Below, piece after piece: positions 24,805 to 54,096 of a DNA stretch of 64,000 bases (position 1 is its first letter; each line of letters opens with the position of its first letter). The notes below the pieces were generated by a model. The model had not been told where the DNA came from. It saw only the letters and a program-made list of their open reading frames with translations, and ran no database searches. Source of the DNA: an uncultured Verrucomicrobiota bacterium (GTDB taxonomy: Bacteria > Verrucomicrobiota > Kiritimatiellia > RFP12 > UBA1067); assembly GCA_946055075.1 (NCBI GenBank), contig CAMGEN010000005.1, positions 2,098 through 66,097 of the forward strand, given 5' to 3'. Made by a program: the position numbers and the translations under genes.

Positions 24805-24832
24805 ATCGCAATAAATGGGAGAGGTGTTCGAT

Positions 24833-27800
24833 ATGACGAACTTGAAGAAGCTGACCGCTTGTGGAGCGGCCTTGGCGCTCGTTGCCGTTGGATCACTGGC
24901 GTTCGCGCAGGACGATCTTGACGATATGTTGAAGGATCTCGAAGGAGAGATCGGAGCCGAGGAAGCGACCACCGCCGAGGCGAAGGCCGAAGAGCCTAAA
25001 CCCGCAGAGGAGAAGGCTGAGGAAGCCGCTCCCGCAGAAGAGGCGGCCGAGGAAACTGCTCTCGCAGAAGAGAAGGCTGAGGAAGCCGCTCCTGCTGAAG
25101 AGGCGGCCGAGGAGGCTGCTCCCGTAGAGGAGAAGGCTGAGGAAGCCGCTCCTGCTGAAGAGGCGGCCGAGGAAACTGCTCCCGTAGAGGAGAAGGCCGC
25201 GGGAAACGCTCCTGCTGAAGAGGTCGCACCCGCCGCTGAGGCGAAGATTTCCAACACGGATGTTGATAATGCGTTAACCCTTCTGGATGAGTTGGATGCC
25301 GAGACAAGGGATGAAGAGTCCGCCCAGGCCAGTGCTTCAACGAATGCCGAAGCACCTGTGGCTGCCGTTGACGCTCCTGTCGCTGACGCTTCTGTCGAGA
25401 GCGCTCCTGCCGTTGTCGCGCCAGTTGCCGCAAAGCCGCTATCTCCCGATGCTGAGCTTATTGCTAATATCCGTGCGACCGAGACTTTGCGCCGTCAGGC
25501 TTTTGACGAGCAGGCGAAACGTGAGATCGGAGAAGCCCGCGCTGCGATGGCTGAAATGGAATATAGTGAGGCCGCGCGTCATTATGGTATCGCGCTTAAG
25601 TTGTTAAATGACAGTCCCGCGACCAAGAAGCATCGTCGCGAGTGTGAGCAGGGTGTTGCTGAAGGGCTTTATCGTGCAGCCATTCAGGAGGATCGCACGG
25701 GTCGTCGTGATCGGGCGATCAAGCTGATGGAGAAGGCGATAGACATGCGGCACCCTAAGGCCCGCAAGCAGTTAGAGTTTTGGTTGGCTGATAAGCAGCG
25801 CGGTGAGGAGAAGCTTGATCTGTCTCAGATCACTCATCGCAAGAACGAGGAAGATTTCAAGGCGCAGCGTAAGGCCGATCAGAAGCTTCTCCGAAGGGCG
25901 CGTCAGCTTTTGGCCGTCCGTGACATTGAAGCGGCTCTTGAGCAGTGCGAGATTGTGCTGGCTGCTGAGCCCTATAATCAGGAGGCGATTCGTCTGCGCG
26001 GGCAGATCATCAAGAAGCAGAAGATTATTCTCGATCAGGAACATACAGTCGCTCGTGACGGGATGATTGCCGAAGTAGGCAAGAAGTGGCGTCCCGTTTA
26101 TGCTCCCAACGCTAAGAAACTTGGCGAAGTCGTGACTGAGACCAGGAAGAAGCCGCTGGGTGACGATCCCGAGCGTTCGGAGGAGCAGAAGATCATCAAT
26201 CGCATGAAGGCTATGCGTCTTCCGACAATTTCCTTTAAGCCGCCGGCAACCATTATCGATGCGGTTGAGTTCTTCCGTGGCGCTTCAAAGGATTACGATA
26301 ATCCAGAGATCCCGCTTGAGAAGCGCGGCTTCAACTTCGTGCTCAAGACACCGGATACACTGGTGTCCAACGCCATGTCCGATGATGACGGAGACGATGG
26401 TTTTACCCAGACTGCCGAGGATGAGGCTGCCAGCAGTGGACAGGTAGGCGTACCTGTGATTCCGATGATTACCGCTAGCGATGTATCCTTCTATGAGGCG
26501 CTGAAGCTGGTTTGCGATTCGGTGAAATACAAGTTCAAGGTTCAGGGTAAGATCGTTATGGTCATGCAGAAAGACATGACTACTGACGAGATGGTCACTC
26601 GCTCCTATCCGGTGCTCGGATCGTTCATTGAACGTATGGGATCTGCTTCGTCTGATATCAAGGAAATGCGGCAGGCCGGTTTTGGCGGCGCAGTTGCGAA
26701 GAATGACGAGGGCGAGGAGAATCAGGAGAAGGACTGGAAGGCGTTCTTTGAGATGATGGGTGTGCAGTGGCCCGAGGGTTCGACGATCATGTACATCAAG
26801 ACGATCGGCAAGCTTCGTGTCAAGAACACTTATGACAACCTCGCCGAACTCGAGAAGGCACTCACTGAACTCAACGTCGACCAGAAGCTGGTCGAGATTG
26901 AGGCCCGCTTCGTCGAAGTCTGTCAGGAAGACCTCAACTCCCTCGGCTTCGAGTGGATTCTTAACAGTGATTACGCTATCGGCTCCCGCGCGCTCGCCAG
27001 CTGGGCTGGTCTGAAGGAGGGAGCATTCGCTGTTACTCAGACCCAGACCTCCACGCCCAGCTCAAGCTCCTCGATGTCTCAGGACTATATTAATGTGGGC
27101 GGCGTCTGGACCCAGAATGGCTCCCCGACATCGACTTCCGGCAAGACGATCAGCACGTCTAATTCCAGCGCTCAGTGGCGCAAACAGCCTGGCTCAGGCA
27201 AGGTCCTCGGCGTTAACGCCATGGGAGGTACTGATGCAAGCTATGGTAACGGTAATCGTTACCTGTCCACCAAGGGCAACCATATCTCCGGTGAGGGCGC
27301 TTCTAACAATGACCAGTTCATGCGGGTGAATGCGTTCCTCGGTTCCGCGGACCTCTCGATGATTCTTCATATGCTCTCGCAGCGTAGCGACACCGATCTT
27401 CTCTCTGCTCCGAAGGTGCTCACCAAGCCGGGCGAAGAAGCCGTCATCAAGGTCGTCACCGAGTATATTTATCCGACGGACTACGACGTTCAGCTTCAAT
27501 CTTCTGGTGGTTCGTCCTCCGGCGGCAGTTCGTCCTCCGGCGGCAGTTCCATGATTCTCGCGGTTGTTGAGCCGCAATCCTTCACCATGCGCGAGGTCGG
27601 TGTCATCCTTGATGTAACTCCTACGCTTACTGACGACGGCAATCTTATCGATCTTAAGCTCAATACGCAGGTCGTTGACGAACCGACTTGGAAGAACTAT
27701 GGTATGAAGATTCCGTTCTCAGGAAACACCTCGATGAACAGCTTTCAGGGTATCGGTGATATCTTTACAGGCTTGGGACAGGTGTTGGCAACTATCGGCA

Positions 27801-28225
27801 CTGGTCTCAGCCCTGATCTGAAGAATGCTTTTGCTGAGCGCGCCGTCGCCTCCGCCAGCCAGGCGATGGACAATCTCTCGAGTTCGCAGAACAAGAACAT
27901 CGAGTATTATGATGCGCCGATGGAGCAGCCGTTCTTCCACGTTCGCTCGATTGACTCGTCCGTCTCTATCAATCCCGGCTCGACGATCGTCATGGGCGGC
28001 CTCATCACCGAAGAGCGCAAGGCGATGGATGACAAGGTGCCGTTCCTCGGGGACATTCCGTTGATCGGCCGCCTCTTCCGTAGCCATTCGGAATGGACCA
28101 ATAAGCGCAACCTCCTTATCTTTGTGACCACCCGACTCGTTGACGTTCGCGGTCGTGAAGTAACTCTTGGATCCGCGGCGGATACCGAATCGGTGGAGAC
28201 CAAGGCCCAGCCGAACGCTGAATAA
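24833..28225 (+). CDS. type II/III secretion system secretin (PilQ/GspD family) with acidic tandem-repeat and TPR-like N-terminal region
   Basis: C-terminal secretin signature (LSAPKVLTKPGEEAVIKV..., VGVILDVTPTL, VPFLGDIPLIGRLFRS...NLLIFVTTRLV). Signal peptide MTNLKKLTACGAALALVAVGSLAFA follows ATG-24833, which has a GGGAGAGG SD 8 nt upstream. The ORF-track start at 24815 is also possible. Confidence 0.88.
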   Translation: MTNLKKLTACGAALALVAVGSLAFAQDDLDDMLKDLEGEIGAEEATTAEAKAEEPKPAEEKAEEAAPAEEAAEETALAEEKAEEAAPAEEAAEEAAPVEEKAEEAAPAEEAAEETAPVEEKAAGNAPAEEVAPAAEAKISNTDVDNALTLLDELDAETRDEESAQASASTNAEAPVAAVDAPVADASVESAPAVVAPVAAKPLSPDAELIANIRATETLRRQAFDEQAKREIGEARAAMAEMEYSEAARHYGIALKLLNDSPATKKHRRECEQGVAEGLYRAAIQEDRTGRRDRAIKLMEKAIDMRHPKARKQLEFWLADKQRGEEKLDLSQITHRKNEEDFKAQRKADQKLLRRARQLLAVRDIEAALEQCEIVLAAEPYNQEAIRLRGQIIKKQKIILDQEHTVARDGMIAEVGKKWRPVYAPNAKKLGEVVTETRKKPLGDDPERSEEQKIINRMKAMRLPTISFKPPATIIDAVEFFRGASKDYDNPEIPLEKRGFNFVLKTPDTLVSNAMSDDDGDDGFTQTAEDEAASSGQVGVPVIPMITASDVSFYEALKLVCDSVKYKFKVQGKIVMVMQKDMTTDEMVTRSYPVLGSFIERMGSASSDIKEMRQAGFGGAVAKNDEGEENQEKDWKAFFEMMGVQWPEGSTIMYIKTIGKLRVKNTYDNLAELEKALTELNVDQKLVEIEARFVEVCQEDLNSLGFEWILNSDYAIGSRALASWAGLKEGAFAVTQTQTSTPSSSSSMSQDYINVGGVWTQNGSPTSTSGKTISTSNSSAQWRKQPGSGKVLGVNAMGGTDASYGNGNRYLSTKGNHISGEGASNNDQFMRVNAFLGSADLSMILHMLSQRSDTDLLSAPKVLTKPGEEAVIKVVTEYIYPTDYDVQLQSSGGSSSGGSSSSGGSSMILAVVEPQSFTMREVGVILDVTPTLTDDGNLIDLKLNTQVVDEPTWKNYGMKIPFSGNTSMNSFQGIGDIFTGLGQVLATIGTGLSPDLKNAFAERAVASASQAMDNLSSSQNKNIEYYDAPMEQPFFHVRSIDSSVSINPGSTIVMGGLITEERKAMDDKVPFLGDIPLIGRLFRSHSEWTNKRNLLIFVTTRLVDVRGREVTLGSAADTESVETKAQPNAE
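25004..25222 (+). repeat. 60-nt (20-aa) tandem repeat x ~3.6 in the secretin gene (AEEKAEEAAPAEEAAEETAL)
   Basis: Exact 60-nt periodicity: GGAAGCCGCT recurs at 25021, 25081 and 25141, with GGGAAACGCT at 25201. Confidence 0.9.
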
Positions 28226-28880: not shown

Positions 28881-30416
28881 ATGGCAGAAGAATTCGACGT
28901 CTTTGCCGGCGTGAGTAAGCCGGCTGCACCCGCACCGCAACCGCAGGGCGCCAAGAAAAAGTTCCATAACAAGAAGGACCGTCCCTTCCGTGGCAATAAT
29001 GGGGGTCAGCTGAAGCAGAACAATTCGCCGCTTCGCGGAGCTAACGGCGAAGAAAGTGTCAATCCGCTGCTGAACGCACCCTTGCCGACAGAGCCGAAAT
29101 CGTCGGCGGATGGAACGATGGTTAATCCTAATCGCAATCCAGAATTGCCAGAGTACCGTCTAGCCGACATCCAGACTTGGTCAGCTCCCGTCATCGTCGA
29201 ACGCATGATGCCCGGTGCCGATCCTGAGGAGCTCGGCACGTATCGTAAGCACGAGCTCATTTTCGCCGCGATCCGCATGTATCTGCAGAAGGGTGGTGCG
29301 GTGCTTGCAAGCGGCTGTTTGGAGATCGTCCGTGAGGGACACGGCTTCCTCCGTTCCGCGAAGAACAACTTCCTCGCCTGCCCTGAAGATGTTTTCGTCA
29401 CGCAGCAGCAGATCCGCCGTCACGCGCTCCGTACTGGTGATATTGTTGAAGGACCGATTCGCGATCCTCGTGATAAAGACCGTTTCTTCGTGATTGGCAA
29501 TGTCACGACCGTCAACGGCAAGGAGCCTTCGCAGGCCGCTCGAGTGATTCATTTCGAGAACCTTACCGCGACCTTCCCCACGCGGCGCATCATCCTCGAG
29601 ACCGAGGCAAAGGAATTCTCGACTCGTGTCATCGACCTTTTTACTCCAATCGGGTTCGGGCAGCGCGGAATGATCATTGCGCCGCCTCGGGTCGGTAAGA
29701 CCGTGCTTCTCCAGAAGATGGCCAACGCGATTTCTAAGAATCATCCCGAGGCGATCTTGATCATCCTCCTTATTGACGAGCGTCCTGAGGAGGTGACGGA
29801 TATGCAGCGCAACACCAAGGCGATGGTTCTTTCATCGACCTTCGATGAAGAGCCTCAGCACCATGTGAACGTCACCGAGATGGTGCTTGAAATGTCCAAG
29901 CGACAGGTCGAGAACGGTAAGGACGTAATCATCCTTATGGATTCGCTTACGCGCATGGCTCGCGCCTACAATACAGTTCAGCCCCATTCCGGCAAGATCC
30001 TCACCGGTGGCGTTGACGCGCTTGCAATGCACCGACCGAAGCGCTTTTTCGGTGCTGCCCGCAACATTGAAGGCGGAGGGTCGCTCACCATTATTGCGAC
30101 TGGTCTTATTGATACGGGCTCGCGCATGGACGAGGTTATCTTCGAGGAATTCAAGGGTACCGGCAATATGGAGATCATGTTGGACCGCGGCCTCGCCGAC
30201 AAGCGTATCTATCCCGCGATCGACATCGAGAAGTCAGGGACGCGTAAAGAGGACCTTCTCCTTGATCCGCGCGAACTGGAGAAGACCTGGGGCCTTCGTC
30301 GTATCCTTGCCGCCGCCGGCGCCGAGAACGCGATGAAGTCCGTCCTCAATTCGCTCAAGAAGACTCAGTCCAATCCTGAATTTCTGATCGCCTTGGATCT
30401 TTCGAAGCTTGGATAA
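28881..30416 (+). CDS. rho: transcription termination factor Rho with ~90-aa low-complexity N-terminal extension
   Basis: 511 aa. RNA-binding and ATPase blocks are present (GFGFLR-like [22 protein letters not shown] Walker [32 protein letters not shown]). Confidence 0.95.
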
Positions 30417-33376
30417 TGGATATTGTCATCAAGAATGCCAAGGTTCACAATCTCCGCGGAATCGATGTGACGATTCCGCGGAATTCCTTGACGGTCATTA
30501 CCGGGCTTTCCGGTTCCGGTAAATCTTCCCTCGCCTTTGACACCCTTTATGCCGAAGGACAACGCCGCTACGTCGAGTCGCTCTCGGCTTATGCGCGGCA
30601 GTTCCTAGATCGCATGGAGAAGCCAGATGTCGAGCGCATTGACGGACTCTCTCCTGCGATCTCTATTGAACAGCACACGACCTCGGGTAATCCCCGTTCC
30701 ATTGTCGCGACCGTTACCGAGATCCATGATTACCTCCGTATCCTGTACGGATCGATCGCCACGGCCCATTGTCCGCATTGCGGCAAGCCCGTCACTAAGC
30801 AGTCCGCCGAGCAGATCGTGGATTCCATTCTCAATCTTAAACCGCAGGCTTCAGCTTCGGGGCGCAAGATCATCCTTCTTGCTCCAGTGGTGAAGGGCAA
30901 GAAGGGCGCGCAAATCGATGTCTTCGCCGCGCTTAAGCGCAACGGCTTCGCCCGCGTGCGCGTTGACGGCGAGATGTATTTGCTTGATGAGGTTCCGGAA
31001 CTCGACAAAAAGAAGGCCCATAATATTGATGTCGTCATCGACAGGTTGGTTTTGCCGTGTGCGGAACTTTCCGACTCTTGCTCAACGTCTCAAATTCCCA
31101 ATTCCTTTCGCACCCGTCTTACCGATTCCGTTGAACTCGCGCTCAAGACTGGCAAAGGCATCCTCAAGGTCGAAGAACTCGGATCCGCTCCCGAATCCCG
31201 AACCGCGAACCACGAACCACGAACCACCACCTACTCCGAACTCAACGCCTGCGTCGATTGCGGACTCTCCTTTGACGAACTCAAGCCCCGTAGCTTCTCC
31301 TTCAATTCGCCGTTTGGAGCCTGTCCGAAATGTTCTGGCCTCGGCCAGCTCTACTTTTTCGACGAGGACCTTATCGTTCCCGACAAGACGCTGCCGCTGG
31401 AGGAATGCATCCATCCGTGGCGCCGTCTTGGGGGACAGATGGCGATACTTTATCATAAGGAGCTTCTCGTCCACATTGCGAAACAGTACAAGGTGAAGCT
31501 CTCGACTCCGTACCAGAAGCTGCCCGCGGCATTTCGTAAAGGACTTATGCACGGCTTTAAGGACGACCTCGTCCTTCCCTGGCGCCGAAATGACAAGCCG
31601 TTTGAGGGTGTCATCGAGAATCTTCAGCGCAAGATGGAGGAGGCGCCGGATGACGAGGTCCGCGCGAAATATGCCGCCTACCAGAACTTCAAGACCTGCC
31701 CTGATTGCGGCGGTTCGCGACTAAATGAATTCTCTCGCGTAGCTGAAATCGCCGGCCGGACCATCGTCGACGTGATGGCGATGCCCATCGCCGACTGCCT
31801 CGCCTTCTTCAAGAAGTTAAGAAGTAAGAGTGAAGAGTCAAGAGTTGTGGAGGATTCTCTAAATGACGATTCCACAACTCTTCACTCTTCACTCTTAACT
31901 CTTAACTCCAACCGTCTTGCCGGGCTGCGCGACATCCTCGCGGAAATCGTCAAACGGCTGCAGTTCCTGCTCGACGTCGGCCTCGACTACCTCACGCTCG
32001 ATCGCGCGTCTTCGACCCTCTCCGGCGGCGAGATGCAGCGCATCCGTCTCGCGACGCAGATCGGTTCGGGGCTTACCGGCGTCCTCTATGTCCTCGATGA
32101 GCCGACGATCGGACTCCATCCTCGCGACAACGAGCGTCTCATCAATACGCTCAAGAGTCTGCGAGACCGCGGGAACACCGTGGTCATCGTCGAGCATGAC
32201 GAGGAGATGATGCGCGCCGCTGACTACATCGTCGACCTCGGTCCCGGTGCGGGACGCGAAGGCGGCAAGGTGATGTATCAAGGCGACTTCGCGGGGCTTC
32301 TCAAGGCGAACTCATTGACGGCCGACTATCTGACCGGACGCAAGAAAGTAAGAGGTAAGAGTGAAGAAGTAAGAGTTGCGGAAAGTTCTTCTTTGAAGAA
32401 GATTAAAAAAACCACAACTCTTCACTCTTCACTCTTACCTCTTAACTGCCTTACCATCTCCCGCGCGACAGCGCACAATCTGCGTAATCTCACCGCGCAC
32501 GTCCCGATCGGTTCGCTGACCGTCGTCACCGGTGTCTCTGGATCCGGCAAGTCTTCGCTCGTCTACGACACGTTGAAGCCCCGGATGATCGCGAAGATGG
32601 ACGAGCATTTCGATAAGATGATTGAAATCGACCAGTCGCCCATCGGGAGGACGCCGCGATCGAATCCCGCGACCTACGTCGGATTCTACTCCGATATCCG
32701 CGATCTCTTCTCGAAGACCGAGGCGGCGAAGGCGCGCGGCTATACGCCCGGACGCTTCTCGTTCAACGTGAAGGGCGGACGGTGCGAGGTGTGCGGCGGC
32801 GACGGGGTGCAGAAGCTCGAGATGAGCTTCCTCCCCGATGTCTATGTCACCTGTGAACAGTGCGGCGGCAAGCGCTTTAACGCGGAGACACTCGAGGTCG
32901 CCTACGGCGGCAAGAACATCTCGGAGATCCTCGAGATGACCGTCGCCGAAGGCTGCGAGTTCTTCGCGAAGATCCCGTCCGTCTACAAGAAGCTCAAGAC
33001 GCTTCTTGATGTCGGACTCGGCTACATCGCCCTCGGTCAGTCCTCTACAACTCTCTCCGGCGGCGAGGCCCAGCGCATCAAGCTCGCGACTGAACTCTGC
33101 CGACGGTCTACCGGCAAGACCCTGTATCTGCTGGACGAGCCGACGACCGGACTCCACTTCGACGATGTCGCGAAACTGATGAAGCTTCTCACGCGGCTCC
33201 GCGATCAGGGCAACACCATACTGATCATTGAGCATAATCTTGACGTGATCCGAATGGCCGACTGGATTATCGATCTCGGACCCGGTGGCGGAGATAAAGG
33301 CGGACGGCTGGTCTTTGAGGGGACAGTCCCCAATCTCAAGAAGTGCAAGGACTCCCTTACGGCCAAGTTCCTATGA
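30416..33376 (+). CDS. uvrA: excinuclease ABC subunit A, carrying three in-frame repeat-element insertions
   Basis: 986 aa. Two ABC modules ([52 protein letters not shown]) and zinc-finger cysteines. TAATG overlap with the rho stop. Confidence 0.97.
31192..31226 (+). repeat. tandem heptamer run (CGAAYCN x5; family C) in frame inside uvrA
   Basis: CGAATCC CGAACCG CGAACCA CGAACCA CGAACCA encodes part of [15 protein letters not shown], between conserved UvrA blocks. Confidence 0.75.
31816..31906 (+). repeat. in-frame imperfect palindromic element (family A; 5 heptamers per arm) inside uvrA
   Basis: Left arm GTTAAGA|AGTAAGA|GTGAAGA|GTCAAGA|GTTGTGG (31816-31850), 21-nt loop, right arm CCACAAC|TCTTCAC|TCTTCAC|TCTTAAC|TCTTAAC (31872-31906). 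The arms are complementary at 32/35 positions. Confidence 0.85.
32347..32446 (+). repeat. second in-frame imperfect palindromic element (family A) inside uvrA
   Basis: Left arm AGTAAGA|GGTAAGA|GTGAAGA|AGTAAGA|GTTGCGG (32347-32381), 30-nt loop, right arm CCACAAC|TCTTCAC|TCTTCAC|TCTTACC|TCTTAAC (32412-32446). Same orientation and reading frame as the first copy. Confidence 0.85.
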
Positions 33377-35159: not shown

Positions 35160-35187
35160 GTGAAGAATGAGAAGCGAAGAGTCGTAG
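35160..35187 (+). repeat. single purine-rich (left-arm type, family A) element at the argC 5' end
   Basis: GTGAAGA|ATGAGAA|GCGAAGA|GTCGTAG lies immediately before ATG-35190. It resembles the uvrA left arms. If translated from GTG-35160 it gives KNEKRRVVE, compared with KSEESRVVE in uvrA. Confidence 0.6.
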
Positions 35188-35189
35188 AA

Positions 35190-36197
35190 ATGAAGAAAGT
35201 CTTTATTGACGGAAGTGCCGGAACTACTGGTCTGAGAATCAAGGAAAGACTTTTACAGCGAGACGACCTGGAGCTGATTACTCTTCCTGAAGAGGTCCGT
35301 AAGGATGTCAATGCGAGACGCGACGCGCTCAATTCGAGCGACGTCGCGTTTCTCTGTCTTCCTGACGCGGCCGCGATCGAAGCGGTCTCGCTCGTCGAGA
35401 ATCCGGATACCGTCGTCATCGATACCTCTACTGCGCACCGTTGTGCCGAAGGGTGGGTTTACGGCTTCCCGGAATTGACGGTCGATGGCATTCCGTACCG
35501 CTCGCGCCTCGCGAGCGCTAGGCGTATTGCGAATCCCGGTTGTCATGCGAGCGGATTCGTTGCGCTTGTTGCACCGCTCGTTCGAGCCGGAATCATTTCC
35601 GCCGACGCCGCGCTTGCGTCATTCTCTCTCACCGGCTACTCTGGCGGCGGTAAGAAGATGATCGCGGATTATGACGAGAAGTTGAAGTGTGAGGTTGAAG
35701 GCGAAGATCGGAATGCAAAGAATCCTTGCTTCAACTTCAACTCGGAACTTCAACTCTATCTCGGGGGTCGCCAGTATGCTCTCGGGCAGGTCCATAAGCA
35801 TCTGCCGGAGATGGTGAAGTACTGCGGACTTTCCCGGGCGCCGGTCTTCTCTCCGGTCGTCGTCCCGCATCTGAGCGGTATGGAAGTTACGGTGCAGCTC
35901 AATCTGTCTTCGCTCCGTACCGCTTGCGCCCTCGCGGGCGTTAAGGATGCCTATCGCGAGTTCTACTCGGATGCGAGGCTCGTCCGTTTCGTCGAGTCGC
36001 TTGATCAAGGCGGTTTCATCTCGTCCGCGGCGATGACCGGACGTGATGATATGCTAGTCTCAGCCTACGGCAACGACGAACGTATCATCCTCGTTTCGCT
36101 TTTCGACAATCTCGGCAAGGGCGCATCCGGCGCCGCGATCCAGAACATGAACCTCGCCCTTGGCGTCCCCGAAACCACCGGACTGGTATTAGGTTGA
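35190..36197 (+). CDS. argC: N-acetyl-gamma-glutamyl-phosphate reductase (short/type-2 form) with an in-frame palindromic insertion
   Basis: MKKVFIDGSAGTTGLRI N-terminus, active-site IANPGCHASG, HKHLPEM, and LGKGASGAAIQNMNL near the C-terminus. An alternative GTG start at 35160 lies inside a repeat element. Confidence 0.88.
   Translation: MKKVFIDGSAGTTGLRIKERLLQRDDLELITLPEEVRKDVNARRDALNSSDVAFLCLPDAAAIEAVSLVENPDTVVIDTSTAHRCAEGWVYGFPELTVDGIPYRSRLASARRIANPGCHASGFVALVAPLVRAGIISADAALASFSLTGYSGGGKKMIADYDEKLKCEVEGEDRNAKNPCFNFNSELQLYLGGRQYALGQVHKHLPEMVKYCGLSRAPVFSPVVVPHLSGMEVTVQLNLSSLRTACALAGVKDAYREFYSDARLVRFVESLDQGGFISSAAMTGRDDMLVSAYGNDERIILVSLFDNLGKGASGAAIQNMNLALGVPETTGLVLG
35676..35756 (+). repeat. 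in-frame imperfect palindromic element (family B, CTTCAAC/GTTGAAG heptamers) inside argC
   Basis: Left arm GTTGAAG-TGTGAG-GTTGAAG-GCGAAG (35681-35706), 18-nt loop, right arm CTTCAAC-TTCAAC-TCGGAA-CTTCAAC (35729-35754). Encodes EKLKCEVEGEDRNAKNPCFNFNSELQL. Confidence 0.8.
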
Positions 36198-36246
36198 TGG
36201 TAGCTATAACATCCTTCATTCCTAATTCCACACTCCTACTTCCTAG

Positions 36247-37134
36247 TTGTCCTGCTCCTTGATCACTAATTTCCACACTCATTCGACCTGGTGCGACGGA
36301 AAGAACTCCGTCGAGGAGATGATCGTCGGTGCGATCGAGCGTGGGTTCGCCGCGATCGGCTTTACTTCGCATGCGATGTTCCCGTATTTTGAGAGCTGGT
36401 CGCTCGGGCCACAGGCGGCGAAGGACTACGTTTCCTGCGTCCGCGCCGCGGCCGAGAAGTACTCGAAGTACATCAAGGTGTATTGCGGACTTGAGACCGA
36501 CTATCTTCCGGGCGTGACGACCCCTGAGCAATCGCGTTATGCCGAGTACGGACTCGACTATATCATCGGGTCGCTCCATTGGGTGTTGGCCGGTTATTCG
36601 CCTCAGCCGGGGATGCGGAATCCTTTCCGCTCCGAACCGTTGATCGGCGCCGACGGACTGCTGTCTCCTGCCTTCGTCTCTGTCGACCATACGCCGCAGA
36701 TCCTCGCGGACGGACTTCGCGATCACTTCGGTGGTTCTGCGAAGGCGCTGATTACTGCGTATCATGAGCAGCTTCGCGAGATGGTCACACGTTACGATTT
36801 CGATATTCTCGGACATCCCGACCTTTACCGTAAGTACAACCAGAAGCACCCGTTCTTCGACGAGTCCGAACAGTGGTATCGTGACGAGCTCGTGAAGTCC
36901 GCTGATGCGATCGCGGTTTCAGGGAAGCTCGTCGAGGTGAATACAGGGGCGATTGGACGCGGTTGGCGTGATGACGCTTATCCGTCCGACGAGTTCCGTG
37001 CGCTTTTGCGTGAACGCGGCGTGAAGTTCGTCTTGAATTCCGACAGTCATTCCGTCGATTCGCTGGACGCCGGTTTCGGGAAATATGCGTCCGCGGAAGA
37101 ATACATCGATTTCCGCAATCACATAAGGAGGTAA
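36247..37134 (+). CDS. PHP-family histidinol-phosphatase-like phosphoesterase (non-ATG start)
   Basis: NFHTHSTWCDGKNS metal-binding HxH motif sits within 10 codons of TTG-36247, and later HxD/H motifs (GHPD, NSDSH) are present. There is no in-frame ATG upstream of the HxH motif. Confidence 0.75.
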   Translation: MSCSLITNFHTHSTWCDGKNSVEEMIVGAIERGFAAIGFTSHAMFPYFESWSLGPQAAKDYVSCVRAAAEKYSKYIKVYCGLETDYLPGVTTPEQSRYAEYGLDYIIGSLHWVLAGYSPQPGMRNPFRSEPLIGADGLLSPAFVSVDHTPQILADGLRDHFGGSAKALITAYHEQLREMVTRYDFDILGHPDLYRKYNQKHPFFDESEQWYRDELVKSADAIAVSGKLVEVNTGAIGRGWRDDAYPSDEFRALLRERGVKFVLNSDSHSVDSLDAGFGKYASAEEYIDFRNHIRR

Positions 37135-38614: not shown

Positions 38615-38619
38615 CTTCA

Positions 38620-38644
38620 CCAACCACGAACCGCCAACCACGAA
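38620..38644 (+). repeat. direct repeat CCAACCACGAA-N3-CCAACCACGAA (family C) in the ispF leader
   Basis: Copies at 38620-38630 and 38634-38644, ending 6 nt before ATG-38651. Shares the CCACGAACC core with the uvrA heptamer run. Confidence 0.7.
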
Positions 38645-41431: not shown

Positions 41432-42727
41432 ATGCTGTTGGCGTTATTGGCACTGTTCCTGCTTTCCGCATTCTTCTCAAGCGCCGAGACGGTGTTGTTT
41501 TCGCTTACTGGCGCGCAGCGTGAGAAGATTCGCAGCAAAAGCGCAGAGGATGACCAGCGAATCGGCAAGTGCCTATCGGATAAGGCGGTGCTTTTCTCGA
41601 CGTTATTGGTCGGTAATACCTTTGTGAATTTCGCGATTTCTTCCATCGGATACTGCGTCTTTGACTGGCTCGTTCCCGGTAACGGTTGGATTGCGGTGCC
41701 GGCGATGACGGTGCTGTTATTGCTCTTTGGCGAGATCACACCGAAGCGCCTTGCGCTACGCTATACTGGAGAGCTGGCGCCGCTGTACTCAAGATTGCTT
41801 CTGTTTTGGCGTGCAGCGTTTTATCCGTTCAACAAGGCGTTACGTTGGTCTTCGAAGGCTTTCGCTCCAGCATTGGCGCGCGAGCGTCGAGCGCTTTCGG
41901 ATGATGAACTCGTTTCGGTGATGGATTCCGCTGCGGAACGAGGCGATATCTCATCAGCTGACGCCGACATGATTGAAGGCGTTTTGCGGCTCTCTGAGCT
42001 CTGTGCCAACGACGAGATGACTCCGCGAGTCGATATCGTCGGTTATGATATAGATCTGCTCGGTGATCCATCCGCTGCCCGCCAACAACCCACTACCCAC
42101 ACTCCACTACCAGCTACCGACTACCAGCTACCAACTACTCGACATCGCTGGCTGCCTGCGTTCCGGCGAAGTCCGGATAATATCGAGGGGGTCTATGATG
42201 CGAAGGAGAAAAGGATCGTGGACGCGCTCTTCGTTCCGGAGACTGTGACATTGGACGATCTGCTTACAACGTTTGCGAAGAGCGGAAGGGAGATTGCGAT
42301 CGTTACGGACGAATATGGCGGAACCGCGGGCATTATCACTCCAAACGATATACTTGAGCTAATCATCGGTCCCCAGGTATTCGACTCTCCAGATGCCGAG
42401 CCGAAGCTGGTAATGAAGGGAGTGGGGGTATGGGAGGTGGACGGACGCGTATCGCTCGACGAGATCAATCGTACGCTGGATATTGAACTTGAGGCTGAGG
42501 ATGCAGATCGTCTGTCCGGATGGCTACAGTTTCATGCCGAACGGATTCCGCATGTAGGACAGCAGATCGTTGCAGATGGCGTCAGGGCGACGGTTCTGAA
42601 GCGTCGCCATCGGCGTGTAACTCTGGTTAAACTCGAGATTCTTGAACATCCGGAAGCGGATTCGGATGAAGAGATTATCGCCGAAACTGATGAGGCTGTT
42701 GAGAAGACCGAGGAGGATAACGCATGA
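41432..42727 (+). CDS. CNNM/CorC-family membrane protein (DUF21 + CBS pair + CorC_HlyC) with heptamer-repeat insertion
   Basis: 431 aa. N-terminal DUF21 TM region (SAETVLFSL), CBS-region motifs (MTPRVDIV, AIVTDEYGGTAGIIT) and a C-terminal CorC_HlyC-like block (WEVDGRVSLDEIN). Confidence 0.82.
   Translation: MLLALLALFLLSAFFSSAETVLFSLTGAQREKIRSKSAEDDQRIGKCLSDKAVLFSTLLVGNTFVNFAISSIGYCVFDWLVPGNGWIAVPAMTVLLLLFGEITPKRLALRYTGELAPLYSRLLLFWRAAFYPFNKALRWSSKAFAPALARERRALSDDELVSVMDSAAERGDISSADADMIEGVLRLSELCANDEMTPRVDIVGYDIDLLGDPSAARQQPTTHTPLPATDYQLPTTRHRWLPAFRRSPDNIEGVYDAKEKRIVDALFVPETVTLDDLLTTFAKSGREIAIVTDEYGGTAGIITPNDILELIIGPQVFDSPDAEPKLVMKGVGVWEVDGRVSLDEINRTLDIELEAEDADRLSGWLQFHAERIPHVGQQIVADGVRATVLKRRHRRVTLVKLEILEHPEADSDEEIIAETDEAVEKTEEDNA
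42089..42138 (+). repeat. tandem heptamer run (CCACTAC/CCACACT then CTACCAG|CTACCGA|CTACCAG|CTACCAA|CTAC) in frame inside the CNNM gene
   Basis: 7-nt periodicity read directly from the sequence. Encodes PTTHTPLPATDYQLPTT within the first CBS region. Confidence 0.75.
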
Positions 42728-49576: not shown

Positions 49577-50241
49577 AGGCGGTTGTCGTATTAAGCGGTG
49601 GGCAGGACTCGGCACTGTGTCTTGCACTCGCCGTTAAGAAGTTCGGCGCGAAGCACGTCTCGGCGATCACCTTCGCCTATGGTCAGCGGCATTCCATAGA
49701 GCTTAAGTTCGCCAAGAAACTCGCGAAGCGCTTTGGTGTCGCGCAGCACAAGGTCGTCCGGCTCGACTTCTATTCACAGATCACCGACAACGCCTTGATG
49801 ACGCCAGGCACCGCCATCCGCATCAAGCACTCTGCACTCCGAACTTCGCGCTCAGTTCCCAATACCGTCGTTGAGGGCCGCAATGCGATTTTCCTGCAGA
49901 TCGCCTCGGTCTGGGCCAAGTCGTTGGGCGCGACATATGTCTACACCGGCGTCTCGCAGGCCGACTACTCCGGCTATCCCGACTGTCGTGCTGTCTTCAT
50001 TCGCGCACAGCAGAAGTCCATCCGTCTGGCGCTCGAATATCCGATCGTCATCGTCACGCCGTTCATGCGCAAGACGAAGGCGGACGAATGGGCGCTTGCC
50101 GATCGTCTCGGACTTCTCGAATACATTAACGAGAATACAGTGACTTGCTATAACGGCATCCCCGGCAAAGGCTGCGGAAAGTGTCCTTCCTGCAAGCTCC
50201 GTAACTGTGGACTTGCAGATTACCTGAAACGGAAGGGGTAA
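49573..50241 (+). CDS. queC: 7-cyano-7-deazaguanine synthase
   Basis: 222 aa. [15 protein letters not shown]-loop, YGQRH and the C-terminal Zn-binding CYNG...GCGKCPSC cluster. GTGA overlap with the recA stop. Confidence 0.92.
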
Positions 50242-50273
50242 TAACTCTTCACTCTTCACTCTTACTTCTTAAT
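50239..50273 (+). repeat. single right arm of family A (TAATAAC|TCTTCAC|TCTTCAC|TCTTACT|TCTTAAT) between queC and nhaC
   Basis: Near-identical to the right arms of the two uvrA palindromes. It overlaps the queC stop and ends 5 nt before ATG-50279. No complementary left arm lies nearby. Confidence 0.75.
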
Positions 50274-50278
50274 TTACC

Positions 50279-51598: not shown

Positions 51599-54096
51599 CA
51601 AAGTGCCTCTCGTTTGCGGTTGCCCTCGCCGCGCCTTTTCTGTATGCCGAAATGGAACCGGCCACTCCGGAATCGCAGGGCGTCGAATCGCAGGGGATAA
51701 TCGACTTCATTGATGCTTGCGAGCAGACCTTCGACGGGGTCAAGGAAGGGCGTGTACATGGCTTCGTGATCGTCCGTCACGGCAAGGTGATTGCAGAGGG
51801 TAGCTGGAAACCTTTCGATACCTTGAACGAGACGCATATGCTCTATTCTCATTCGAAGAGCTTCACTTCGACCGCTATTGGGTTTCTCGTCGACGACGGT
51901 AAGCTCGATCTTGACGAGCGGGTTGCGGACATCTTCCCCGAGGACCTCCCCGAGCATCCGGCTGATGGGATCTGCGAGATTCGCGTGCGCGATCTCCTCA
52001 CGATGAACGTCGGCTCCGATCTCAATCACGATATCACGAAATCGTCGAATTGGCGCCGACGTTTCTTCGAGCGGAAGCTCGACCGCAAGCCCGGCACCGG
52101 TTTTAAATACGACTCGGACGCAACCTATATGCTTGCTTGTATCGTCGAGCGGCGTACCGGCAGGAAGCTCATGGATTTCCTCGAAGAGCGTCTATTCTCG
52201 AAGATCGGCATCAAGAAGGCGTGGACCACAACTTCACCCCAGGGCATCGCCTGCGGCGGCTGGGGGATGAACATGACGACGCGCGAGCTTGCGCGGTTCG
52301 GACAGCTCTATCTGCAGAAGGGCTACTGGAATGGCGAGAACATCATCTCTCCGTACTGGGTGGCGCTTGCGACCGCGCGTCATACCTGGTCCGGCTGGCA
52401 GAACGTCGGAGCCCAGCGACTCGGCGCGGGTACGGAATGGGAACAGGGATACGGCTTCCAGTTCTGGCGTTGCACTCATAACGCGTATCGTGCGGACGGC
52501 GCCAGGGGACAGTATACGGTCATCGTGCCCGATCAGGACCTGGTCGTCTCAATGCACGCCGGTCTCTGCGATATACAGAAGGAGATCAATCTCATCTGGA
52601 ATCATCTTCTCCCCGCGATGAAGGACGGCGTTCTCCCCGAGAACGAGCAGAAGCTCGCCGAGCTCCGCGGCAGAATCGCCGCGCTCGCGATTCCGCCGGT
52701 TACGGGGAATGGGGAAAAGGCAATAGGGAATGAGGGGGAGTTGTATGGCGATTATGCGATCGAGGACAACTGGCGCGGCATCAGGGCGGTGCGGATCATG
52801 AAGGACGCAGACGGATGGAAGATGAAGTTCTACGCCCGTTGTTGGCCGAGTGAGTTTCCGATCGGCTTCAACGGGTGGAAGAAGGGCGCGCTCAATTTCG
52901 ATCCGGATAGTTTCGAGGCGATCGGTACTCTGCAATGGACCCAGGAGACCGCCGCTTCCGCCGCCTTCGACAAGGATGGTGCACTGAAGTGCCGTGTTTA
53001 TATGACGGGTACGACGCATTATCTCGATTTCAAGTTCTTCATGAAGGACGGAGTGCCGACAGTTGAAGGCAAGCTTTGGGGTATGGGCGGTACGGACTTC
53101 AAGGGGTCGAAGATGAAGGAGCCGGTCGTCCCGGCGGATCTGTCGAAGACCGATGATCCCGTTGCGGTGAAATCCTTTTTCGAACGGAACGAATTCGGTT
53201 CGCGTCCGGTCGAGAAGCCGTCCGATCTAACCTTTAAACTCCTCGCGCAGAACGAATGTCTCGGAGGAAAGGCGATCCACCAGATGGTCGAGATTTCATC
53301 GAAGGGAACACTCGCTCCGTTTGCGTTCGTCGCTCACGCGTACTTTCCGAAGGGAGCGAAGAATGTTCCGGTGATGGTTTCGATCAATCTCGGGCAATGG
53401 CTTGAGAGTCAGAAGTTCAACGCGTCCGCTGAAGATCCGTCCATTTCTTCTTGGCCGATCAAGGACGTGATAGCGCGAGGTATCGCGACGATCGGCTTTC
53501 GAAACTCAGATATTGCGAATGACGGCGGAAATTGTTTTGAGACTGGAGTCTTCAAGGCGTTCGGTCCCGTGACGCGGGCTGATGATTCCTGGGGCGCGCT
53601 TTCGGCGTGGGCGTGGGGTGCGAGCCGTTGCGTCGATTGGTTGGAGACGCTCGGCGGCGCTGTCGACATGAAGCGGATCGGCGTGATCGGACACTCCCGC
53701 GGCGGAAAGACCGCGCTTTGGGCCGGTGTAACTGATTCGCGTTTCTCGCTCGTTTGCGTCAACAACTCTGGATGCGGAGGCGCGAAGCTTAACCGGATGG
53801 TGTTGCCGTGGTCCGAAACGATCGACGCGATCTCCACCGTTTTCCCGTATTGGTTCGCGCCGAATTTCCGGAAGTTCGCCAAGGATAACGGAGCTTCCAT
53901 GCCGTACGACCAGCACAATCTTCTGTCGCTCGTCGCGCCGCGCAAATTGGTAATCGGCTCAGCGACGAAAGACGACTGGGCCGGACCGAAGGGCGAGGAA
54001 GCGGCGGCGAAGCTCGTCGGCGCCAAACACTTCTGGCGAGAAGGCGGACACGACCTCACGCCCTCAGACTGGTCCCGTTATCTGGAAAATCTTTAA
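51595..54096 (+). CDS. secreted fusion protein: beta-lactamase-class serine hydrolase (SxxK) + C-terminal alpha/beta esterase resembling CE15 glucuronoyl esterase
   Basis: ATG-51595 (ATGA overlap with the nhaC stop) gives the signal peptide MTKCLSFAVALAAPFLYA. YSHSKSFTSTAIG SxxK motif; C-terminal GHSRGGKTALWAG nucleophile-elbow motif. The ORF-track start at 51349 lies inside nhaC. Confidence 0.75.
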   Translation: MTKCLSFAVALAAPFLYAEMEPATPESQGVESQGIIDFIDACEQTFDGVKEGRVHGFVIVRHGKVIAEGSWKPFDTLNETHMLYSHSKSFTSTAIGFLVDDGKLDLDERVADIFPEDLPEHPADGICEIRVRDLLTMNVGSDLNHDITKSSNWRRRFFERKLDRKPGTGFKYDSDATYMLACIVERRTGRKLMDFLEERLFSKIGIKKAWTTTSPQGIACGGWGMNMTTRELARFGQLYLQKGYWNGENIISPYWVALATARHTWSGWQNVGAQRLGAGTEWEQGYGFQFWRCTHNAYRADGARGQYTVIVPDQDLVVSMHAGLCDIQKEINLIWNHLLPAMKDGVLPENEQKLAELRGRIAALAIPPVTGNGEKAIGNEGELYGDYAIEDNWRGIRAVRIMKDADGWKMKFYARCWPSEFPIGFNGWKKGALNFDPDSFEAIGTLQWTQETAASAAFDKDGALKCRVYMTGTTHYLDFKFFMKDGVPTVEGKLWGMGGTDFKGSKMKEPVVPADLSKTDDPVAVKSFFERNEFGSRPVEKPSDLTFKLLAQNECLGGKAIHQMVEISSKGTLAPFAFVAHAYFPKGAKNVPVMVSINLGQWLESQKFNASAEDPSISSWPIKDVIARGIATIGFRNSDIANDGGNCFETGVFKAFGPVTRADDSWGALSAWAWGASRCVDWLETLGGAVDMKRIGVIGHSRGGKTALWAGVTDSRFSLVCVNNSGCGGAKLNRMVLPWSETIDAISTVFPYWFAPNFRKFAKDNGASMPYDQHNLLSLVAPRKLVIGSATKDDWAGPKGEEAAAKLVGAKHFWREGGHDLTPSDWSRYLENL
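52703..52740 (+). repeat. purine-rich heptamer-periodic run (GGGGAAT|GGGGAAA|AGGCAAT|AGGGAAT|GAGGGGG) in frame in the hydrolase fusion gene
   Basis: Encodes TGNGEKAIGNEGEL at the apparent boundary between the beta-lactamase-like domain and the following domain. Confidence 0.6.

Follow-up and report, generated by a model that had tools for sequence, protein, structure and literature searches.

The window analysed here, a stretch of 64,000 nt from a contig of an uncultured Verrucomicrobiota bacterium, carries a uvrA gene (Table 1) whose product matches solved UvrA chains at an E-value of 1e-287 and whose homologs contain the UvrA Pfam domains PF17755 and PF17760. Within this gene are two palindromic elements, E1 (31816-31906; 91 nt) and E2 (32347-32446; 100 nt), which lie at a distance of 531 nt (177 codons), share orientation and heptamer/codon phase, and are free of stop codons. 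Their arms are arrays of tandem heptamers, called by TRF at period 7 with 4-5 units per arm and hence at least three in each, and are complementary at 32 of 35 positions in E1 and over 33 nt (88%) in E2 according to the repeat finder. The two elements agree in the order of their unit variants and in a non-repeat apex, GTTGYGG/CCACAAC. Re-measurement reproduced the coordinates, five-heptamer arms, 21-30 nt loops and E1 complementarity given in the original prediction, together with the common orientation and frame, the absence of stops and the peptides that it quoted. The boundaries of both elements blur into native AAGAAG codons. The ends of the E1 loop, GGATTC..CGATTCC, resemble by eye, without statistics, an inner hairpin (ggaatcg..cgattcc) of three longer ORF-less elements from other contigs (L133, L137, and L142).

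The 35-nt arm pattern, with up to three mismatches allowed, matched three times in the window and not once in 100 shuffles, and a two-heptamer pattern was found nine times where 0.09 matches were expected. RNA folding, which had been proposed as a check, predicts very stable hairpins for E1 (-52.8 kcal/mol, z -9.7) and E2 (-51.7 kcal/mol, z -8.7), that is, z-scores of about -9 to -10. The elements have a GC content of 0.385 and 0.36, respectively, versus 0.578 in the remainder of uvrA, and each is stop-free in only one of the six orientation/frame combinations, which is the frame used. A scan of the whole window against Rfam, rRNA included, returned no family at gathering score.

In an alignment with the solved UvrA 9gxk, the first site falls between chain residues ~470 and 476 and the second inside a ~13-aa linker preceding the second ATPase domain. 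E1 occupies the loop after the FF..L helix and E2 the NBD-I/NBD-II linker, both of which are structurally permissive; the expectation that the inserts would map to fold-compatible positions is thus borne out, solved UvrA structures aligning them as a short loop and an inter-domain linker. A multiple alignment of UvrA orthologs delimited both sites and found them hypervariable, all 45 aligned homologs carrying differing inserts at both. The proposed insertion between conserved UvrA blocks needs correction in that these are not simple insertions: the sites carry different hairpin or tandem-repeat families, and at site 2 E2 takes the place of a ~17-aa linker instead of splitting it. In distant orthologs the loop is short at each of the two sites, as opposed to the homologous peptides that would have spoken against insertion. 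A concatenated 64-aa insert-peptide query gave no scored match in other proteins, and an insert-peptide profile run against 1.84 billion representatives gave a single match, to an irrelevant repeat protein. An AlphaFold2 model of UvrA built on a 32-sequence alignment was discarded (mean pLDDT 53.6), confidence being low for the inserts (474-500 and 643-694) and for many core segments.

Further heptamer arrays and hairpins are present elsewhere in the window (Table 1) and in relatives, including argC, coaE and a CNNM-family gene, so that E1 and E2 are not the only copies. Placement in frame, without stops and at fold-compatible positions, as in E1 and E2, is also seen in argC, coaE (in the related assembly L121) and the CNNM and beta-lactamase/esterase ORFs. 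The argC hairpin is predicted to fold at -37.9 kcal/mol (z -3.2), and in L121 a solo AGGA heptamer arm stands in its place. Of the two single arms proposed earlier, that at 50239-50273 was confirmed by 83% identity to the E1 right arm; it is intergenic, preceded by the queC stop (50241) and followed by an ATG at 50279, a stop-arm-ATG layout that recurs in phage contigs. At 35160-35187 there is an array as proposed, albeit only a degenerate purine one, and its L121 ortholog (12623-12661) is a clean 5.6-unit GAGTGAA array, i.e., (GTGAAGA)n. Seven was the commonest tandem-repeat period across the window and the fetched loci (374 arrays, compared with 37 for period 6 and 65 for period 8), although these counts are biased in part by how the loci were fetched.

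Table 1. Host gene, element parts and further heptamer arrays in the window (positions in nt of the window).
Feature	Position	Strand	Details
uvrA ORF	30416..33376	+	986 aa; hosts E1 and E2; ORF list and translation
In-frame CGAACCA x4.1 array in uvrA	31199..31227	+	Within 11-aa stretch missing from UvrA 9gxk
E1 left (purine) arm	31816..31850	+	GTTAAGA AGTAAGA GTGAAGA GTCAAGA GTTGTGG
E1 loop	31851..31871	+	21 nt, between E1 arms
E1 right (pyrimidine) arm	31872..31906	+	CCACAAC TCTTCAC TCTTCAC TCTTAAC TCTTAAC
E2 left arm	32347..32381	+	AGTAAGA GGTAAGA GTGAAGA AGTAAGA GTTGCGG
E2 loop	32382..32411	+	30 nt; own small hairpin TTCTTC/GAAGAA
E2 right arm	32412..32446	+	CCACAAC TCTTCAC TCTTCAC TCTTACC TCTTAAC
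Degenerate purine heptamer array	35160..35187	+	Directly 5' of argC ATG (35190)
Third in-frame hairpin, in argC	35676..35762 (approximate)	+	GTTGAAG/CTTCAAC units; encodes KLKCEVEGEDRNAKNPCFNFNSELQ
Solo AGGA-flavour arm	36220..36247	-	ACTAGGA AGTAGGA GTGTGGA ATTAGGA; intergenic, downstream of argC; identical in L122
Intergenic CACCAAC array	38618..38641	+	3.4 units versus 6.4 in near-identical L122
In-frame CCAACTA-type x8.1 array	42082..42138	+	CNNM-CBS linker of ORF 41432-42727; L122 ortholog 7.3 units
Solo pyrimidine arm	50239..50275	+	TAATAAC TCTTCAC TCTTCAC TCTTACT TCTTAAT; 83% identical to E1 right arm
In-frame GGGGAAT x4.1 array	52704..52732	+	Between beta-lactamase and glucuronyl-esterase domains, ORF 51349-54096

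The host of both uvrA elements is a gut bacterium of an Akkermansia-like lineage, and the two sites are hypervariable across that clade. The uvrA protein cluster comprises 18 member sequences on three contigs, and the independent assemblies L121 and L123, as well as the protein P0003, again contain E1 and E2 or close variants of them. The uvrA gene of a further relative, L122, is 96.0% identical to that of the window (97.9% when only third positions are compared) but has neither element, and P0003 combines an L122-type site 1 with E2. L121 has a third-position identity of only 65%, and its E1 arms are identical at 68 of 70 positions. L123 carries both elements, each with six stem pair columns altered on both sides (AAGA:TCTT to AGGA:TCC(T/A)). 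In six relatives compared at the DNA level, these two sites are filled by hairpins built of other units, by solo tandem arrays or by palindromes of high GC content. Repeat families at permissive sites of housekeeping proteins thus turn over faster than the strains diverge, and the arms retain complementarity and family flavour through compensatory, concerted changes, which may arise from array slippage combined with either gene conversion or re-templating by other family members. No stop interrupts the host frame in any of the five orthologous copies (E1 and E2 of the window, E1 of L121, and E1 and E2 of L123); every difference among their lengths (90, 93 and 87 nt; 99 and 99 nt) is a multiple of three, and their arms have five units in every ortholog seen. 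This conservation of frame suggests that E1 and E2 are translated into loop or linker peptides of ~30 aa.

The original prediction knew of no element combining these properties in a PVC-like genome, but the element is not special to that group: identical arms were found in Clostridia, Bacteroidota, Campylobacterota, Cyanobacteria and phage contigs. Over 36-44 nt, apex included, the right arm of E1 is 92-97% identical to arms in unrelated metagenome contigs, and the same arm, in frame and encoding TLNSSLLTLN or another 10-residue peptide, occurs in HypF, AlaRS and GH28 genes. Ga0123353 contigs with a GC content of 0.58-0.60 and full elements were considered as relatives of the window and rejected, the one checked (L142, equivalent to P0121) belonging to a Clostridiales MAG and resembling the window in its arms only. 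Literature searches with the exact DNA and peptide strings gave chance primer matches or nothing, and those combining Akkermansia or Verrucomicrobia with heptamer repeats gave nothing relevant.

A metagenome scan with the apex-plus-arm pattern returned 31 loci, and in 12 of these an ORF of the PF05635 family is situated between a (GTGAAGA)n array and a CCACAAC-(TCTTCAC)n array; the similarity that links arms and cassettes spans ~35-45 nt and is in part a product of selection, the search pattern having been derived from the arms themselves. These small, selfish cassettes, ~0.5 kb in length with inverted heptamer arrays at their ends, occur in several bacterial phyla, with examples in Clostridia, Bacteroidota and low-GC contigs, and encode a ~120-aa four-helix-bundle protein (PF05635/TIGR02436, 23S-rRNA intervening-sequence protein; E-values of 1e-23 to 1e-29 for PF05635 and 1e-30 for TIGR02436). 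The PF05635 family was first found within 23S rRNA intervening sequences and is related to the DGR protein Avd; to our knowledge, no transposase activity is associated with it. Six PF05635 genes were also chosen by protein similarity alone, blind to the arms, and in each of them the ATG directly follows a purine heptamer array, accompanied in three by a complementary 3' array; since all are 65-77% identical to one query, they represent one subfamily. Array length beside PF05635 genes varies between samples by multiples of 7 (e.g., P0132 and P0168), and window arrays other than the E1 and E2 arms likewise vary in steps of 7. ORF-less versions that keep two inner hairpins were also detected (L130, L133, L136, L137, L140, and L151). 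Judged by sequence similarity, the arms of the uvrA elements match the end repeats of PF05635 cassettes, a correspondence that is newly found here.

E1 and E2 share with the ORF-bearing cassettes a long terminal stem of tandem heptamers and the arm sequence itself, including the apex GTTGTGG/CCACAAC. They lie in a protein-coding gene, as opposed to helix 25 or 45 of 23S rRNA, and because their loops of 21 and 30 nt contain no PF05635 ORF they are at most ORF-less derivatives, like L130, L133, L137, and L140. A PF05635 gene was found neither in the window nor among closely related contigs totalling ~110 kb, so that the lineage's own cassette source is putative. Among viral contigs, the apex-specific pattern had no match and the general arm pattern returned 14 loci, mostly solo arms and none with PF05635, which does not support phage carriage of the cassette. 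The many solo arrays in other genomes and phages that have no cassette nearby indicate that heptamer arrays also exist independently of PF05635.

On balance, E1 and E2 are probably translated, ORF-less miniatures of the hairpin family to which the PF05635 cassettes belong, with an RPE-like outcome. Under this model, a dispersed family of hairpin repeats with tandem-heptamer arms (GTNAAGA, or TCTTNAC when the opposite strand is read) would have seeded both elements, the same arms, apex included, serving as the terminal inverted arrays of the ~0.5-kb cassettes. The inserts lie at permissive loops and linkers, where selection may do no more than filter for frame and tolerance. Neither a transposase nor a target-site duplication, a reverse transcriptase or a clean empty site was seen, and the replacement of the linker by E2 at site 2 is more easily reconciled with recombination or conversion than with cut-and-paste insertion. 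In RNA, each element would form a duplex of ~33-35 bp, a plausible RNase III substrate by the precedent of the Coxiella intervening sequence, and the net effect on uvrA expression would then probably be neutral to mildly negative.

An origin on the spot, by slippage on native AAGAAG (Lys-Lys) codons and fold-back template switching to generate the second arm, with the likeness of the copies due to convergent slippage, would dispense with mobility. It accords with the start of E1 and E2 immediately after native AAGAAG or AAGAAA codons, with copy numbers that differ between near-identical strains (the CACCAAC array and those of P0132 and P0168), with deletion scars resembling local decay, such as GGRSVEFPNST in P0007, and with the over-representation of heptamer SSRs in bacteria, which is usually attributed to slippage (Mrazek, 2007, cited in PMC4692102). 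It is nevertheless unlikely, as convergence would have to account for the same variant order and non-repeat apex in both elements and for the same 26-40 nt at 92-97% identity in unrelated organisms with GC contents from 0.38 to 0.61. The elements moreover have 36-38% GC within a gene of 58% GC, the E1 arms are 97% identical between genomes with 65% third-position identity, and a strain that is 98% identical at silent sites differs entirely at both sites.

Less likely again is that the structures are selected, the hairpins being kept for the regulation of uvrA (through RNase III cleavage, ribosome pausing or mRNA stability) or the peptides having a function in UvrA. The stems are very stable, have been preserved through compensatory changes and are better conserved in their arms than silent sites are, and the similarly built stems of intervening sequences are RNase III substrates (PMC4990558). 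Against such a role, presence and absence vary within one species, unrelated sequences substitute in relatives, and the same arms recur in unrelated genes and intergenic DNA of many phyla; the insert peptides are wholly different between lineages at the same site, so that no peptide function is conserved.

The inserts could also be missing from the UvrA protein, through excision as in intervening sequences or bypass by the ribosome, in that related 23S rRNA elements are cut out by RNase III and long hairpins can promote translational bypass, as in T4 gene 60. We consider this very improbable, since the openness of all five copies in the host frame, the length differences in multiples of three and the location of each element in its only stop-free frame would be needless without translation, and we know of no route by which bacteria rejoin an mRNA after RNase III excision of a segment. 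Repeats and hairpins do trouble short-read assemblers, and many related contigs are short, but an error of assembly or sequencing (for instance, low-complexity repeats joined into a chimera) can be dismissed because the same elements are found at identical codons in assemblies that are independent and come from different samples, with the frame intact and the flanking UvrA blocks collinear with solved structures.

With respect to known repeat systems, the original prediction described the elements as RPE-like in behaviour and STRR-like in composition; the in-frame, stop-free palindromes and tandem-heptamer arms uphold this, and the link to PF05635 cassettes was missing from it. As RPEs are summarized in PMC10969869 (after Ogata et al., 2000, 2002), they are likewise short palindromes located in frame in unrelated housekeeping genes, encode a fold-compatible peptide, have intergenic copies too and contain no transposase. 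They differ in being ~100-150 bp long, lacking tandem heptamers, being confined to Rickettsia and relatives and having no known ORF-bearing parent, whereas the heptamer-array arms of E1 and E2 are common to several phyla and to PF05635 cassettes, and one protein site holds different repeat families in different strains. Membership of the RPEs is therefore unlikely on unit composition and host, only behaviour being shared.

A long terminal stem that contains heptamer repeats has a published precedent in the Coxiella 23S intervening sequence, a selfish element with an S23p (PF05635) ORF and a 28-bp terminal stem cut by RNase III; tandem heptamers make up part of the 5' side of this stem, in numbers that differ from strain to strain (PMC4990558). 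The 23S intervening sequences of Leptospira and Coxiella resemble E1 and E2 and the cassettes in their long inverted-repeat stem, copy-variable heptamers, PF05635 ORF, insertion at a permissive loop of a conserved gene and the occurrence of decayed ORFs or ORF-less forms (PMC4990558). They differ in residing in rRNA and being excised by RNase III, whereas E1 and E2 lie in a protein gene, are ORF-less and evidently let the ribosome read through them; the heptamer unit in Coxiella is GACAGAT (PMC4990558), versus GTGAAGA here.

Small non-autonomous palindromes that are sometimes intragenic and have longer, gene-bearing relatives are also known as REP/REPIN-RAYT systems and MITEs (Correia, ERIC, BOX, Nezha), but no RAYT or IS transposase, GTAG/CGTC tag or target-site duplication was seen for E1 and E2. 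They have the terminal inverted repeats (35-nt arms) and the size below 300 bp (91 and 100 nt) of a MITE; no direct repeat flanks either element, the ORF-bearing relatives encode PF05635 in place of a transposase, and no IS was found beside any copy. Heptameric SSRs, such as cyanobacterial STRRs, GGGAATC in Xanthomonas, GGGGAYT in Nostoc and TAACTGA in Beggiatoaceae, are similar in consisting of tandem 7-nt units, mostly intergenic, often just 5' of starts and variable in length among close relatives; Xanthomonas has 70-75 convergent inverted heptamer pairs per genome, and the patchy cross-phylum spread of such repeats has been read as horizontal transfer (PMC4692102; PMC4679880). These reports describe arrays only, with no linked ORF and no in-frame occupation of housekeeping genes (PMC4692102; PMC4679880), and the units differ from those of E1 and E2, although the window does contain a GGGGAAT array (52704-52732).

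A wider proposal, possible but doubtful, is that heptamer-armed hairpins and PF05635 genes form one cross-phylum selfish system, in which the Avd-like protein would recognize, or help to copy, its array ends, and ORF-less miniatures, mobilized in trans, would colonize rRNA helices (as intervening sequences), intergenic DNA and protein loops. If true, this would explain the long-noted excess of heptameric repeats in bacterial genomes, the origin of 23S intervening sequences and the occurrence of RPE-like palindromes outside Rickettsia. Three oddities, namely protein-coding palindromes, the excess of 7-nt repeats and ORF-bearing 23S intervening sequences, may then be faces of one family. That family is active in bacteria of several phyla, from the gut and from the environment, and remodels loops and linkers of core proteins (UvrA, ArgC, CoaE, HypF, and AlaRS) on the time scale of strain divergence. 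In practice, such inserts make the proteins of Akkermansia-like genomes look more divergent and disrupt the assembly of these genomes. They bear on how new peptide segments enter conserved proteins and offer a testable handle on the role of stand-alone PF05635/Avd-like proteins. A correspondence between a pentameric PF05635 protein and the five heptamers per arm was considered and dropped, given that the arrays beside PF05635 genes have about 3 to 19 units.

E1 and E2, the two hairpin elements within the uvrA gene of the window, were recovered with the positions, heptamer arms and loops of the original prediction, and the 32/35 arm complementarity claimed for E1 was likewise obtained. The purine arm of E1 comprises the heptamers GTTAAGA, AGTAAGA, GTGAAGA, GTCAAGA and GTTGTGG, and its second arm CCACAAC, TCTTCAC, TCTTCAC, TCTTAAC and TCTTAAC; the 35-nt arm pattern occurs three times in the window vs none in 100 shuffles. 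RNA folding yielded the single hairpin expected of each palindrome (E1, −52.8 kcal/mol, z −9.7; E2, −51.7 kcal/mol, z −8.7), and the RNA stems would be substrates for RNase III. The elements lie 531 nt apart in identical orientation and codon phase, and neither contains a stop, as had been claimed: only one of the six orientation and frame combinations of each is stop-free, which is exactly the one that uvrA uses for both, with GTGAAGA/TCTTCAC employed in the phase where GTTAAGA/TCTTAAC would yield an in-frame TAA. Both elements are probably translated. Their GC content (0.385 for E1 and 0.36 for E2) compares with 0.578 in the remainder of uvrA, and an Rfam scan of the whole window matched no family.

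Positions of uvrA, its two elements and further heptamer repeats in the window
Feature	Position	Remarks
uvrA ORF	30416-33376	986 aa; solved UvrA structures match at E about 1e-287
E1	31816-31906	purine arm, 21-nt loop, pyrimidine arm
E2	32347-32446	plan as in E1, 30-nt loop
In-frame heptamer array	31199-31227	uvrA
Degenerate purine array	35160-35187	intergenic, directly before argC ATG; L121 counterpart clean
In-frame hairpin in argC (35190-36197)	about 35676-35762	GTTGAAG/CTTCAAC units
Solo AGGA-type arm	36220-36247	intergenic
CACCAAC array	38618-38641	intergenic; 3.4 units in window vs 6.4 in L122
In-frame heptamer array	42082-42138	CNNM-CBS linker
Solo pyrimidine arm	50239-50275	intergenic, queC stop to next ATG
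In-frame heptamer array	52704-52732	beta-lactamase/esterase interdomain linker

In an alignment to the solved UvrA 9gxk, the E1 site (site 1) lies between FFANLNL (chain residue ∼470) and LIARQILKEI (∼476), in the short connection joining two helices of the first signature domain, and the E2 site (site 2) lies within the stretch LSGRKKIEVPKERRKPNGKWLEIIGA, in the linker of about 13 residues that joins the two ATPase halves; on this alignment E1 occupies a loop and E2 a linker. An AlphaFold2 model of UvrA was too poor to inform on the inserts (mean pLDDT 53.6). Both sites are hot spots: in an alignment of the 45 closest homologs (70–94% identity), every sequence carries some 15–60-aa insert at each site, drawn from many different families. 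The homologs come from Akkermansia-like genomes: Amuc_1100 and Amuc_1102 family proteins, PilM and a secretin are among those encoded next to uvrA, and gene order and gene lengths in these neighborhoods equal those in the window.

The DNA of both sites was compared in six relatives. At site 1, L121 carries E1 itself, L123 an E1 of AGGA flavor, the near-identical strain L122 a GC-rich palindrome, L169 a REP-like palindrome (GGACGCGTC/GACGCGTCC), L170 a hairpin built of GAATTGACGAATGG-type units and L171 a solo array of CTCCAAC units. Site 2 is comparably varied and includes, in L121, a plain 17-aa linker, probably the form nearest to the ancestral one. Given this range, the predicted insertion between conserved UvrA blocks stands as regards position, but E2 replaces the native linker and is no clean insertion. 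In L169, an Akkermansia-like relative (73% UvrA identity), GC-rich REP-like palindromes occupy both sites (11438-11503 and 11942-12058), translating as RGRVGDASLP and RDRGRLGEPSLP, a peptide motif that annotated proteins of its lineage may often contain. One arm (GGAAAGGATTCCGC) of the L122 site 1 palindrome recurs without a mismatch at 36615-36628 (−) of the window, inside a PHP-domain ORF, so that genes of the window genome also harbor copies of this second, GC-rich family. Three more variable UvrA patches in this clade (window residues ∼140–150, 214–230 and 257–270) contain lineage-specific inserts such as RSGKDTASPAENAKSTGAAESFPRLPSD; two of the patches overlap, in L123, with a period-7 and a period-6 array (L123 1198-1227 and 1514-1539).

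L122 uvrA is 96.0% identical to that of the window (97.9% at third codon positions, elements excluded) and lacks both elements, and the homolog P0003 combines E2 with an L122-type site 1. Presence of either element thus varies between strains of what amounts to a single species, which shows turnover within a species, and the two sites assort independently. The L121 and window genes are only 65% identical at third positions, yet their E1 arms match at 68/70 and the E1 loop at 18/21 positions; the arms are much better conserved than silent sites. L123 has both elements with homologous loops, but every left-arm unit reads AGGA in place of AAGA and the right arm has changed from TCTT to TCC(T/A) to match, giving double compensatory changes in six stem pair columns in both elements; the predicted fold of its E2 is retained (−56.7 kcal/mol). 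This is compensatory concerted evolution, and could reflect conversion by another family member or replacement with a sister-subfamily copy. Every length difference between orthologous copies is a multiple of three. Conversion together with slippage probably maintains the arms.

A period-7 scan and TRF located additional arrays and arms in genes and intergenic DNA of the window (see table) and in L121, where a solo AGGA arm takes the exact place of the window argC hairpin and coaE contains a solo (TCTTCAC)5 arm encoding LHSSLFTLHSSL. These in-frame examples in further genes show that occupation of protein loops by repeats is general in this lineage. Repeats of other kinds were also seen. The giant 5665-aa ORF at 104-17101 (+) has many dispersed D-x-D-x-D-G-type calcium-binding motif copies, thrombospondin type 3-like (GATACCGACGGCGAC...) and seen as repeat families D3-D6 and D8-D9. 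Near the N-terminus of the secretin-like protein (ORF 24815-28225), PAEEKAEEAA is encoded by seven tandem 30-nt units (24926-25225 (+); 7.4 units in the window vs 5.4 in L122), and five tandem 63-nt repeats (62890-63300; 65–85% identical) lie close to the window end.

The arms are not restricted to this lineage. An arm-pattern scan of a species-level genome collection returned at least 120 loci; the matches listed include Clostridia, Prevotella and other Bacteroidales, Cytophagales (Aquirufa, Larkinella, and Fibrella), Campylobacterota, Calothrix, one planctomycete and one verrucomicrobial MAG. The arm is also carried by 14 phage contigs, mostly as a solo array that separates a stop codon from the following ATG. 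Among the 127 arms listed, 28 are accompanied by an inverted partner no more than 160 nt away and 19 fall in open frames of 200 codons or more. Within genes the arm encodes the same peptides as in UvrA (e.g., TLNSSLLTLN). Host genes include Campylobacterota HypF, Sulfurovum AlaRS and a Prevotella GH28 enzyme, and one HypF gene of a Campylobacteraceae MAG has three separate in-frame heptamer-arm inserts, including LLTLNSSLLT. By these matches, the same arms are used in frame in other phyla; E1 and E2 are real and no isolated oddity.

When the non-repeat apex (CCRCAAC...) was added to the arm pattern, a second scan gave 31 loci in metagenomes, from organisms of GC 0.38 to 0.61; these loci resemble the window in the arms only (92–97% identity over 36–44 nt). 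In 12 of the 31 the arm terminates a ∼0.5-kb unit that reads, on the ORF sense strand, (GTGAAGA)n, apex, small hairpin, ∼118-aa ORF, small hairpin, apex and (TCTTCAC)n. The ORF belongs to PF05635, the 23S rRNA intervening-sequence (IVS) protein family (E 1e-23 to 1e-29), and to TIGR02436 (four helix bundle protein). Six loci (L130, L133, L136, L137, L140, and L151) have equal ends and inner hairpins and lack the ORF, and E1 and E2 look like even shorter versions of these. Compared as sequences, the arms of E1 and E2 match the ends of the cassettes and of their ORF-less miniatures, and the two elements probably derive from this family.

Against the bias of an arm search, six PF05635 proteins were chosen by protein similarity alone; all are 65–77% identical to one query and thus sample one subfamily. 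A purine heptamer array (GTGAGGA, GTTAGGA, or GTGTGGA) immediately precedes the ATG in all six genes, and in three a complementary array directly follows the gene (TCCTAAC/TCCTCAC, TCCACAC, and CTCCACT); TCCACAC and GTTAGGA are also the units from which E1 and E2 are built in L123. Across metagenome samples the upstream array varies from 49 to 133 nt for P0132 (L172-L181, gene at 701) and from 61 to 96 nt in L200-L205 (gene at 401), strictly in 7-nt steps.

The main alternative, growth of E1 and E2 in place by slippage and fold-back, accounts for such array-length variation and for the AAGAAG context. Slippage has been proposed as the cause of the over-representation of heptameric repeats in bacteria, where Xanthomonas genomes each contain 70–75 convergent inverted GGGAATC array pairs (PMC4692102). 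Growth in place, however, leaves unexplained the shared apex, the identity of arms across taxa, the low GC of the elements and their one-step presence or absence between near-identical strains. IVS/PF05635 cassettes are most probably the ancestry of E1 and E2. The 428-nt IVS in Coxiella 23S rRNA has been described as a selfish element that comprises an S23p ORF, an RNase III-cut terminal stem of 28 bp and, at its 5′ end, two or three tandem heptamers in strain-dependent number (PMC4990558, which also quotes the old idea that such IVSs are mobile elements). The proposed likenesses, in outcome to Rickettsia palindromic elements (RPEs), the classic in-frame palindromes (PMC10969869), and in composition to cyanobacterial STRR-type arrays, both hold. 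TAACTGA arrays, often directly before start codons, are common to Beggiatoaceae, cyanobacteria and Bacteroidetes (PMC4679880). In the literature, incompletely covered, no report was found that ties heptamer hairpins in general to PF05635 genes or places them in frame within protein genes.

Three of the six sampled PF05635 genes lie between mod and res of type III restriction-modification operons. In L182-L199 and L206-L209 the gene is flanked by the methyltransferase and restriction subunits of such operons, is preceded by a short GTGTGGA-type array and overlaps the res start with its end; in L200-L205 an N6_N4 methyltransferase is also found upstream, with a RhuM-family gene downstream instead. 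Gene callers have annotated spurious 34–41-aa ORFs inside arrays 5′ of PF05635 genes. In the L148 cassette the left heptamer arm contains a small nested GC-rich hairpin (gcgcccgaccgaagggacaagtgcccttgggg), a case of one repeat inserted into another.
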